A stretch of DNA of 64,000 nt from Candidatus Wolfebacteria bacterium GW2011_GWA1_44_24 (GTDB lineage Bacteria > Patescibacteriota > Minisyncoccia > UBA6257 > UBA9933). Positions 18,351-59,302 of this stretch are shown here, in pieces. The notes beneath the pieces were generated by a model. It was given only the letters and a program-made list of their open reading frames with translations, was not told where the DNA came from and did no database searches. Both the position numbers and the translations under genes were made by a program. The first letter of the stretch is position 1. Each line of letters starts with the position of its first letter. The stretch covers positions 236,710 through 300,709 of the forward strand of contig LCIO01000001.1 of assembly GCA_001001115.1 (NCBI GenBank), in the 5' to 3' direction.

Positions 18351-18459
18351 AACGCGAATTTTAGCAGATCGAAAGAGTGATTTCCATTCCAATTTTACAT
18401 AAGCTTGACAAAATAAAACCACTGGTTATAATTCCTTAAAATCAATCGCGAATTATATA

Positions 18460-18478
18460 GCCCCGAAAGGGGTTTTTT
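18460..18478 (+). terminator. Short GAAA-tetraloop hairpin plus T6 (orphan, plus strand)
   Basis: GCCCC-GAAA-GGGGT followed by TTTTT. No plus-strand gene upstream. Confidence 0.35.
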
Positions 18479-18616
18479 GATTGGGATTTATAAATAAATT
18501 ATAAAAATTACGAGTGTTGTTTACATTTTCCAGCAGATTGCCTTTCAGAACCAGAATATTTTTGTTCCAGCGACAAAAATTTCTTCCCCCTCGGCGCGCT
18601 GGCTCCGACTATTGAT

Positions 18617-18690
18617 GTAAAGATTTTTGAAACCTAAACGGAAGCGCAGTCCGCCAGCTGGCGGACGTGAGCGGGTTGAAAAAACTTTAC
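18617..18690 (+). ncRNA. Copy A of a conserved 52-nt structured core (18629-18680) with its own outer stem, in the 5' UTR of the 3D-domain gene
   Basis: Core GAAACCTAAACGGAAGCGCAGTCCGCCAGCTGGCGGACGTGAGCGGGTTGAA is 51/52 identical to 24398-24449. Outer stem GTAAAG-a-TTTTT / AAAAA-CTTTAC differs from copy B but still pairs. Confidence 0.55.
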
Positions 18691-18727
18691 ATTTTCCGTT
18701 GCAGAGTAAACAACGCTTGAAAATCTT

Positions 18728-23972: not shown

Positions 23973-24374
23973 ATGAAAATGAATCCGAAAATATTTAAAG
24001 CTTACGATATCCGCGGCAAATACCCGCGCGAAATAAACGAAAATATTGTAATGGAAATAGTGGATAAATTTTTACCCCGCAAGTTAAAAATTAAAATTAT
24101 TATCGGCCGCGACGCTCGTTTAAGTTCGCCGAATTTATACAAAGCGGCAATCAAACGATTAAAAATTCAATCCGCCGACTGGCGGAGGAAATTAAAAATT
24201 GTCCCGGCGGGATTGATTACCACACCGATGCTTTCTTTTTTGGTCAATTATCTGAAAGCTGATTTCGGCATAATGATTACCGCCAGCCATAACCCAAAAG
24301 AATACAATGGTTTGAAAATCGTCGGCAAAAACGCCATGCCGATAAGCGGAAAAGATGTTTTACAATTATTATAA
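23973..24374 (+). CDS. Phosphomannomutase/phosphoglucomutase, N-terminal fragment (domain I)
   Basis: KAYDIRGKYP..., active-site loop ITASHNPKEYNGLK. Ends at TAA 24372-24374, in the same frame as the downstream fragment. Confidence 0.8.
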   Translation: MKMNPKIFKAYDIRGKYPREINENIVMEIVDKFLPRKLKIKIIIGRDARLSSPNLYKAAIKRLKIQSADWRRKLKIVPAGLITTPMLSFLVNYLKADFGIMITASHNPKEYNGLKIVGKNAMPISGKDVLQLL

Positions 24375-24472
24375 ACAACAAATACAAAATTGTTTCTGAA
24401 ACCTAAACGGAAGCGCAGTCCGCCAACTGGCGGACGTGAGCGGGTTGAAGAAACAATTTTGTATTCGTTGTT
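24374..24472 (+). ncRNA. Copy B of the structured element: 23-bp stem + 53-nt core region = 99 nt, inserted inside the PMM coding frame
   Basis: AACAACAAATACAAAATTGTTTC (24374-24396) pairs 22/23 with GAAACAATTTTGTATTCGTTGTT (24450-24472). The core contains the perfect hairpin GTCCGCC-aact-GGCGGAC. Confidence 0.6.
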
Positions 24473-24476
24473 GACG

Positions 24477-25418
24477 ATGGCTGTTATGAATTATATAAAA
24501 ATTTACGCTGATTTTCTTAAAAAATTTTTACGACCTCGACAAAAATTGAAGGTGGTTTTTGATTGTTCCAATGGCGTTGCCGGCCCGATAATTAAACAGC
24601 TGACAACCGACAGCCAACAACTGAAAACTTTTTTGATTAATGAAAAATCCGATGGCAATTTTCCGGCTCATGGGCCGAATCCGCTTAAACCCAACGCGTT
24701 AAAACAACTCCAAAATGAAGTCAAAAAACACAAAGCTACTCTCGGAATAATTTTTGACGCCGACGGCGACAGAGTATTTTTCATCGATAATCGCGGCCGC
24801 TTTGTTGACCCGGACGTGATTTCTCGATTGTTAATTTGGCACCTTAAGCCAAAAAAAGTTGTTATCGATGTCCGGACGGGATGGCTCGTAAGAAAATTCA
24901 AAATTAAAAATTCAAAATTAAAAATTCACGAATCAAGCGTTGGGCATTATTTCATAAAAAAATTAATGCGCAAAACTAATGCGGATTTAGGCGTCGAACG
25001 TTCGGGGCATTATTATTTCGGACCAAACATTCATAATCAAAAAAATCTTTATTTTGATTCGGGAATCCTTGCCGCCATTGAAACAATCAATGCGGTTTCA
25101 AAATTGCCGTATTCTTTGGCGGATTTCAGCGATTTATTTCCGCCGCTTTATCGCTCCGGCGAAATCAACATAAAAATCGGCCAGCCGCAAAATATAATAA
25201 AAAAAATTGAAAAAAAATTGAAAAATCAAGCAATAAAAACTTCTCGCCTTGACGGCTTAACGATGGAATTCAATCCTTCGGCAAGCCCGGGAAAAGCCTG
25301 GCGGTTTAATCTGCGGCCGTCAAACACCGAACCGCTGGTCAGATTAAATATTGAAGCAACCGATAAACGATTTCTTGACAATTTTCTTAAAAAGATTTAT
25401 TCTTTAATTAGCAATTAG
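24477..25418 (+). CDS. Phosphomannomutase/phosphoglucomutase, C-terminal fragment (domains II-IV)
   Basis: KLKVVFDCSNGVAG, Mg loop FDADGDR, sugar loop ERSGHYYF, phosphate loop RPSNTEP. First in-frame ATG after the element is 24477 (ORF track starts at TTG 24390 inside the element). Confidence 0.75.
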   Translation: MAVMNYIKIYADFLKKFLRPRQKLKVVFDCSNGVAGPIIKQLTTDSQQLKTFLINEKSDGNFPAHGPNPLKPNALKQLQNEVKKHKATLGIIFDADGDRVFFIDNRGRFVDPDVISRLLIWHLKPKKVVIDVRTGWLVRKFKIKNSKLKIHESSVGHYFIKKLMRKTNADLGVERSGHYYFGPNIHNQKNLYFDSGILAAIETINAVSKLPYSLADFSDLFPPLYRSGEINIKIGQPQNIIKKIEKKLKNQAIKTSRLDGLTMEFNPSASPGKAWRFNLRPSNTEPLVRLNIEATDKRFLDNFLKKIYSLISN

Positions 25419-50027: not shown

Positions 50028-50072
50028 CTTATTTACTATCCTATTTTACGATCGTTAAATAGGATAGTAAAC

Positions 50073-59149: not shown

Positions 59150-59302
59150 AACCGTCTGACCCTGTGGGCAAATTAGGAATTGTTTTTAGTTTTCGGACGA
59201 TTCGGCTCCGGCTGGGTCTATCCTCGGAACAATTCTTGACCTTGCGGGATTTATCTCCCGCGAGACTTTAACCAATGTGCCCACAGAGTCAGGCGGTTTT
59301 TT
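59150..59302 (+). ncRNA. Candidate ~150-nt structured sRNA (three-way junction closed by a 19-bp helix, ending in U6)
   Basis: CCGTCTGACCCTGTGGGCA (59152-59170) pairs with TGCCCACAGAGTCAGGCGG (59278-59296). Internal helices AGGAATTGTT/AACAATTCTT and GCGGGA-tttatc-TCCCGC. TTTTTT at 59297-59302. Confidence 0.5.

Follow-up and report, generated by a model that had tools for sequence, protein, structure and literature searches.

A dispersed nested-palindrome repeat family with a conserved hairpin core in Candidatus Wolfebacteria and other CPR bacteria

Two copies of a hairpin element in the window

The stretch of DNA that was analysed (64 kb, hereafter the window) belongs to a Candidatus Wolfebacteria genome from Rifle groundwater, and on its plus strand a 52-nt core, GAAACC...GGGTTGAA, is found twice, at 18629-18680 (copy 1, where the full core reads GAAACCTAAACGGAAGCGCAGTCCGCCAGCTGGCGGACGTGAGCGGGTTGAA) and at 24398-24449 (copy 2). 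The initial annotation of this DNA had drawn attention to the pair, and its count of 51 identical positions out of 52 is confirmed by a sequence check in which 0 such matches were expected by chance (100 shuffles). The sole difference, G18657 in copy 1 against A24426 in copy 2, does fall within the 4-nt loop of GTCCGCC-NNNN-GGCGGAC, as had been described. This placement had been used to argue for a hairpin loop over a symmetric site on double-stranded DNA; the position stands, but the argument is weakened by the inner hairpin of copy 1, which is a perfect 18-nt palindrome.

Each copy folds into one long hairpin, both as RNA (z = -5.0 and -8.9) and as single-stranded DNA (ssDNA). From the outside inward the fold consists of an outer stem, a tandem GA/GA step, an AACCY/GGGUU helix, a 5' bulge of 8 nt (AAACGGAA), the short, irregular GCGCAG/CGUGAGC helix, which contains a G·A mismatch as well as a bulged G, and finally a GC-rich inner hairpin. 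The AACC/GGTT pairing, the tandem GA/GA step and the large 5' bulge that had been noted earlier are all present, although the bulge had been put at 10 nt and is 8 nt in the consensus, because the Y pairs with G.

Covariance model R1 finds no copies in the window other than these two, scoring copy 2 at 109.7 bits and copy 1 at 74 bits. Copy 2 (24374-24472, plus strand) is an intact element of the short form, with its 5' arm at 24374-24397, its core at 24398-24449 (loop AACT, 24425-24428) and its 3' arm at 24449-24472. Its outer stem, earlier given as 23 bp, is in fact 24 bp long (24374-24397 with 24449-24472) and holds one A·C mismatch. With a folding energy of -50 kcal/mol as RNA and -31 kcal/mol as ssDNA, it is the strongest inverted repeat of the window.

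Copy 1 (18615-18705, plus strand) is truncated on its 5' side, as a comparison with other assemblies of the species (L152, L154 and L155) indicates. What is left of the 5' arm (18615-18628) is followed by GA (18629-18630), AACCU (18631-18635), the bulge AAACGGAA (18636-18643), GCGCAG of the irregular helix (18644-18649), the inner palindrome (18650-18665), CGUGAGC (18666-18672), a single G (18673), GGGUU (18674-18678), GA (18679-18680) and a full 3' arm (18681-18705).

The inner hairpins of the two copies share their sequence and the outer stems differ at more than one third of positions. The outer helices had been called completely different in sequence, but both match the family consensus of an A-rich 5' arm ending in TTTYT, that of copy 1 being a remnant; to judge from this consensus they are diverged homologues and not unrelated sequences. 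Two further inverted repeats of the window, one with 25-nt arms 99 nt apart (59150-59298) and the other a near-perfect palindrome of 40 nt (50032-50071), are unrelated to the hairpin-core element.

Copy 1 and apparent deletions

In the same-species assemblies L152, L154 and L155 the outer stem of copy 1 is intact and 26 bp long (CTGCAACGGAAAATGTAAAGATTTTT / AAAAACTTTACATTTTCCGTTGCAG), giving a fold energy of -58 kcal/mol, and the 11-14 bp that remain in the window are a remnant of it. The window is without 87 nt that all three assemblies possess (L152:1290-1376), with the junction at 18614|18615. One end of the missing segment lies in the loop of a GC-rich palindrome and the other in the outer stem of copy 1; it includes the outer half of the 5' arm, the unpaired 3' arm being retained as far as 18705. 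The full palindrome of the sister assemblies reads GGCGCGCTGGCTCCGAC-tatt-GTCGGAG..CCAGCGCGCC; comparison with them identifies 18590-18614 (plus strand) as its left half, the right half having been lost in the window through the same deletion.

The NCBI assembly of the window species, L151 (LCCF01000004.1), has a deletion of 124 nt relative to window 24441-24564, which begins inside the core of copy 2 (after CGTGAGCG) and takes out the start of the C-terminal PMM cistron; either a true variant or an artefact of assembly may account for it. Apparent deletions thus begin inside both copies of the window species and would link the repeat to strain-level deletion, on the basis of an assembly comparison in which artefacts are possible.

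One further feature lies at 18405-18482, where the plus strand has a perfect TTGACA-16-TATAAT promoter and, about 25 nt beyond it, a hairpin resembling a terminator, AGCCCCGAAAGGGGTTTTTT. Together these would give a transcription unit of about 40 nt that overlaps the start of the minus-strand RecO gene.

Copy 2 and the split PMM gene

Copy 2 lies between two plus-strand cistrons of PMM. The N-terminal cistron (PMM-N, 23973-24374, 133 aa) holds domain I only (Pfam PGM_PMM_I), and the C-terminal cistron (PMM-C, 24486-25418) holds domains II-IV by Pfam and has a start that is conserved in homologues. The stop codon of PMM-N (TAA, 24372-24374) adjoins the base of the hairpin, the stem beginning at the last base of the TAA, and the conserved PMM-C start, MNYIKIY (ATG at 24486), is found 14 nt 3' of the stem, so that the 98-nt hairpin occupies the spacer between the cistrons.

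A single stop separates the open reading frames 23973-24374 and 24390-25418, which share a frame, and this would suit an intact PMM gene interrupted by an intron-like element or one for translational bypass. But dozens of relatives show the same split and a conserved Met start of the second cistron, and the four that were inspected have no element, which refutes such a reading and leaves it next to no probability. In these four relatives (L054-L057) a domain-I frame of 131-140 aa stops at the same residue as in the window, and the spacing to the second PMM frame is -19 to +28 nt. The PMM homologues nearest in sequence (55-66% identity, from Wolfebacteria and related CPR) are almost all of about 310 aa with domains II-IV only, and M[ND]YIKIY is the start of dozens of PMM-C homologues. 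The split falls at the same residue throughout one clade of CPR, with a 19-nt overlap of the cistrons in some relatives, and a tblastn search of PMM against the element loci found no co-occurrence. As these homologues indicate, PMM is an anciently split gene, and copy 2 simply fills an intercistronic spacer.

Public gene calls place the start of PMM-C (P0001) at TTG 24390, inside the element, giving a protein of 342 aa that begins MCLKPKRKRSPPTGGRERVEE. This start is an annotation artefact caused by the repeat, which in this way also affects how genes are called.

A dispersed family in CPR genomes and groundwater

CPR genomes are tiny and gene-dense and are thought to be poor in mobile DNA. 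The hairpin repeat is present in Wolfebacteria, Jorgensenbacteria and other Paceibacteria-type lineages of this group, and its copies, of 95-170 nt, number more than 150 when those of at least 14 CPR genomes and of 86 groundwater metagenome contigs are taken together. Species-representative genomes, searched with the pattern ACGGAAGCGCA-N14-24-GTGAGCGGGTT, gave 53 loci of which 50 are true copies, almost all in Patescibacteria (Jorgensenbacteria, Wolfebacteria, Paceibacterota and further lineages). The highest copy number, at least 17, is that of one fragmented MAG, and the repeat breaks assemblies. When metagenome contigs were searched with the bulge left unspecified, 89 more copies were found on the 86 groundwater contigs, and although the bulge was unconstrained it reads YAAACGGAAG, or a 1-nt variant of it, in 84 of the 89. 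The inner hairpin in this set takes 38 different sequences of 15-28 nt, and model R1 retrieves further diverged copies. A scan of IMG/VR with the core pattern gave five matches, none upheld by the covariance model, and BLAST against plasmids and phages gave no copies.

The unit that is common to the family has an A/T-rich outer stem of 20-28 bp around a conserved asymmetric core, with the consensus GA-AACCY-(AAACGGAA bulge)-GCGCAG-(variable GC-rich inner palindrome)-CGUGAGC-GGGUU-GA. As the window holds two copies only, they might be supposed to resemble each other by chance, or to stem from a simple segmental duplication nearby without belonging to a family, but the zero chance expectation and the more than 150 copies in other genomes and metagenomes refute this, and it has virtually no probability left.

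In the initial annotation the core had not been matched by eye to hammerhead, twister, group II domain V or a tRNA-like consensus, and Rfam has no real match for either copy. At gathering thresholds only tRNAs pass in the whole window; at E <= 10 the copies give spurious miRNA-hairpin matches and Hammerhead_HH10 at 12.4 bits against a threshold of 75, and apart from generic miRNA-hairpin models no family attains E < 0.1. Readings of the core as a K-turn, hammerhead, group II domain V, attC box or SRP-like structure were rejected after comparison by eye, the registers or consensus bases being a misfit. The literature searched contained no description of MITEs or palindromic repeats from CPR. 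Both sites in the window are copies of a dispersed, non-coding family of nested palindromes of CPR/Patescibacteria that was previously undescribed, and the earlier proposal of a candidate novel hairpin family is borne out by a family that is real, uncatalogued and covarying.

Covariation and a strand-specific fold

Covariation was assessed in 55 distinct copies aligned to the model. Standard pairs occupy 96.6% of cells, a figure that falls to 75.6% in column shuffles and to about 45% when the partners are slid, and 28 of the 35 pairs have changes on both sides; the covariation score is 0.576, compared with 0.179 for shuffles and 0.07-0.12 for slid partners. The AACC/GGUU helix covaries too (AGCC/GGCU, AAUC/GAUU), and the Y:G pair switches between U·G and C-G. 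Compensatory covariation above controls identifies the element as a conserved structured nucleic acid. A conserved core with covarying helices had been read as the signature of an RNA (or ssDNA) fold, and whilst the core, the covariation and the family are real, covariation in a DNA palindrome alone cannot show a fold at the RNA level, as DNA palindromes can covary without any RNA function.

Mismatches are informative as to the strand. In an alignment-free count with symmetric scoring over 96 distinct outer stems, the core strand has 98 G·T/U against 15 A·C mismatches (about 6:1), which at the level of clusters amounts to 53 G·U against 15 A·C events; 56 copies have more G·U than A·C, and 6 have more A·C than G·U. 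The inner hairpins have 21 G·U against 3 A·C. The wobble excess is on the strand that carries the bulge, and the fold is therefore selected on that strand, which in turn requires a single-stranded state, either RNA or ssDNA.

Long form and transposition footprint

In several genomes the hairpin of about 95 nt sits inside an element of about 153 bp that has 16-bp terminal inverted repeats (CTTTGAATTACGAAAT). These repeats are found on both sides of 36 copies, most often spanning 152-153 bp. Of 33 distinct long-form copies, 9 lie between perfect 7-bp direct repeats (such as TAGAATA, ATGGATA and TTATGTA), where 0.26 would be expected, and a further 5 have direct repeats matching at 6 of 7 positions, where 1.0 would be expected; these duplications are a footprint of transposition. 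Duplication of a TA dinucleotide was considered and rejected, since TA is enriched at the ends yet the true duplication is of 7 bp. Long-form copies with terminal repeats and 7-bp duplications are true MITEs, and the suggestion that the element is not a classical MITE does not hold for these relatives of the window copies. Short forms, namely the two window copies and 45 others, have their own stem only, without the terminal repeats of the family, and at short-form ends, those of the window included, target-site duplication is not above control; the mobility of the short form itself is putative.

Hairpin dynamics at the DNA level

It is apparent that the parts of the element are rearranged relative to one another. 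The core occurs in both orientations with respect to the asymmetric subterminal and outer segments, and inner loops are also found flipped, as in CCCCGCTTTGCGGGG and CCCCGCAAAGCGGGG. Three otherwise different copies (L004:~1660-1690, L045:~170-200 and L017:7386-7491), which belong to two genomes, have an identical perfect palindrome of 20 nt, CCTGCCTGCCGGCAGGCAGG, inserted at CTGA|AACC. The family includes truncated remnants, solitary terminal repeats and a mini-element made of two terminal repeats alone. Inner hairpins are often common to the copies within one genome, and some genomes carry four different ones; the inner element frequently has GAA triloops and perfect palindromes, as stable DNA hairpins typically do. 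The inversions of core and loop, the nested palindromes and the deletions point to hairpin dynamics at the DNA level.

Genomic context

The presence of both window copies on the sense strand of their genes, with one in a 5' UTR, had been thought meaningful, but across the family the core is on the same strand as co-directional flanking genes in 32 cases and on the opposite strand in 30 (13:13 and 19:17). Core orientation relative to local GC skew is 46:52, giving no replication-strand bias, and copies are found in convergent, divergent and tandem gene contexts. Promoters upstream of the core strand show no asymmetry (24 against 18) and there is no terminator.

Within the 8-kb loci around copies there is no recurrent neighbouring gene family or transposase beyond chance, and no Y1/HUH transposase or integrase next to any copy. 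The neighbours are housekeeping genes, such as those for SmpB, IF3 and ABC-transporter operons. Copies within genes are rare (about 3 in 150), and neither window copy lies in coding sequence. One is in frame inside the NAD-dependent DNA ligase LigA (L013:4301-4407), where the adenylation domain is seen as two Pfam stretches, and another is in frame inside a GT2 glycosyltransferase (L067:2285-2400), both yielding peptides that end ...RERVEG/RERVEE. Lying at operon junctions and even translated inside an essential ligase, the repeat is an instance of palindromic selfish DNA shaping CPR genomes.

Likeness to known elements

Bacterial MITEs share traits of the repeat family (PMC2229807). Correia/NEMIS elements of Neisseria, ERIC/IRU, RUP and YPAL are likewise of 100-170 bp, non-coding, A/T-rich, multi-copy and found in operon spacers, and they have terminal inverted repeats and target-site duplications like those of the long form. 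Like the CPR repeat they fold into a long stem-loop, which in RNA form is a substrate of RNase III-type enzymes, as the CPR hairpin would be, and there are shorter and longer versions distinguished by an internal or terminal block in both, the Correia ones being of 107 and 155 bp (PMC2229807). The CPR repeat differs from them in its 7-bp duplication in place of TA, in that its most conserved part is a central asymmetric core and not the terminal repeats, in that core and inner palindrome occur in both orientations, in its widespread short form without terminal repeats or duplications, and in its CPR host range, no CPR MITE having been found in the literature searched.

Rickettsia palindromic elements (RPEs) are also palindromic repeats of about 100-150 bp, both intergenic and in frame within genes, in reduced genomes, and their in-frame insertion in protein genes resembles the L013 LigA and L067 GT2 copies (PMC2229807). 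However, there is no sequence relation, and only about 3 of 150 CPR copies are genic.

With REP/BIME and their RAYT, IS200/IS605 ends and attC sites the CPR repeat shares a hairpin conserved in structure and variable in sequence, conserved unpaired bases, a fold on one strand and, in the short form, ends without target-site duplication. Unlike REP/RAYT and attC it has no GTAG/CGTC head, no attC R/L boxes and no cassette arrays, no Y1/HUH or integrase gene was seen in the 8-kb loci, and it is far longer than REPs, which are palindromes of 20-40 nt. A likeness may also exist to the GC-cluster palindromes of yeast mitochondria and the hairpin-loop inversions of chloroplast spacers, in GC-rich mini-palindromes nested within A/T-rich DNA, repeated insertion at the same points and loops or centres that are inverted from copy to copy; the hosts and sequences are different. 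A rod-like hairpin with conserved internal loops is shared with a number of Rfam RNAs (hammerhead, twister, pistol, hatchet, group II domain V, 6S, SRP, Y RNA), although none of the Rfam families, hammerhead, twister, pistol and hatchet included, falls below an E of 0.1 except the generic miRNA-hairpin models.

Interpretation

The repeat is probably best seen as a CPR-wide, MITE-like family of nested palindromes, with a conserved asymmetric core that would be recognised, in its folded strand, by a protein acting in trans. Terminal repeats, 7-bp duplications, random orientation, the lack of a recurrent neighbour and in-frame genic copies all favour it, whilst the short form without terminal repeats or duplication, the failure to find a transposase partner and a core more conserved than the ends, which is unusual in MITEs, count against it. 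On this account the long form, as a MITE, would be moved in trans by a cut-and-paste transposase, and the window copies would represent the form without terminal repeats, inserted in intergenic and intercistronic spacers and now decaying or stable. The covarying stems result from selection, together with correction and inversion of palindromes at the DNA level, for a hairpin on the core strand as a single strand, as the covariation and the wobble asymmetry show. The bulge and irregular helix would most likely be the module recognised by a trans-acting protein that handles the folded strand, acting on ssDNA during mobilisation or on RNA after read-through transcription, and a co-transcribed duplex of 24-26 bp would serve as a substrate for RNase III-type enzymes. 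Tight operon junctions such as that of the split PMM gene may tolerate the hairpin because its two ends lie together.

The conservation of the core is the feature that a purely mobile origin accounts for least readily. It is more conserved than the terminal repeats, and at orthologous positions in the genomes of two other Wolfebacteria species (L038:1290-1500, reverse complement, and L051:6200-6420), where two tandem core units about 110 nt apart are without the GA/GA step, core and inner hairpin are 98% identical, compared with 83-88% for the coding flanks and 41-72% for the neighbouring non-coding DNA. This suggests that the core there is constrained in place, or homogenised by gene conversion, and goes beyond a purely selfish relic. 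The identical inner hairpins of the two window copies, set against their diverged outer stems, fit a purely selfish relic no better. It can tentatively be proposed that the invariant asymmetric core (the 8-nt ACGGAAG bulge, the G·A mismatch, the bulged G and a hairpin of free sequence) is a new module under in-place purifying selection, either an RNA that binds protein or is catalytic, or a new kind of site in folded ssDNA on which a CPR-specific enzyme acts, that has been spread by hitch-hiking on MITEs. The role of the core may be protein recognition of a folded single strand, whether DNA or RNA. As it outconserves adjacent coding sequence and folds on one strand, it is a candidate for a new protein-nucleic-acid interaction, and this in organisms that cannot yet be cultured alone.

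It is doubtful that the hairpin-core unit is mainly a functional structured RNA (a trans-acting small RNA, an element of mRNA processing or stability, or an undiscovered ribozyme) with MITE-like spread as its vehicle. Strong covariation in three helices, the changes in AACC/GGUU among them, would be expected of such an RNA, as would the wobble bias on the core strand, the alternating U·G and C-G pair, the bulge kept in the unconstrained search, a core that outconserves its coding flanks and z-scores of -5 to -9. Yet orientation shows no preference relative to transcription, promoters on the core strand have no asymmetry and terminators are missing, and no Rfam ribozyme or RNA matches even at E <= 10; the GAA triloops and perfect palindromes are hallmarks of DNA hairpins, and inverted cores and loops, duplicated target sites and copies in frame within genes are in keeping with mobile DNA.

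It is unlikely that the short form is instead a folded-ssDNA substrate for recombination or transposition, in which a strand-specific HUH or tyrosine enzyme reads the inner hairpin and the extrahelical bulge and inserts without target-site duplication. The short-form ends without duplication, the strand-specific wobble tolerance, a stable ssDNA fold and the sharing of inner hairpins by copies of one genome are in keeping with this, and variable stems with conserved unpaired bases are what attC sites and IS608 ends have. However, the 8-kb loci hold no Y1/HUH transposase or integrase beside any copy, there is no GC-skew or replication-strand bias, no conserved flanking tetranucleotide and neither the GTAG/CGTC head of REPs nor attC R/L boxes, and some genomes have four different inner hairpins.

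Palindromes within PMM coding sequence

A palindrome, TCCGCCGACTGGCGGA, is found in frame within the PMM-N coding sequence (24171-24186, plus strand), where it encodes SADWRR, a peptide missing from relatives. It is of the same type as the inner hairpin of the element, and a palindrome of this type takes the place of the bulge in one core unit of L038. PMM homologues of CPR (P0009, P0089, P0092, P0093 and others) have variable low-complexity inserts at fixed points, including repeated GGLASRSLSE, SAPPTGGW and PSASSGQAW, and these look like translated palindromic or tandem DNA insertions.
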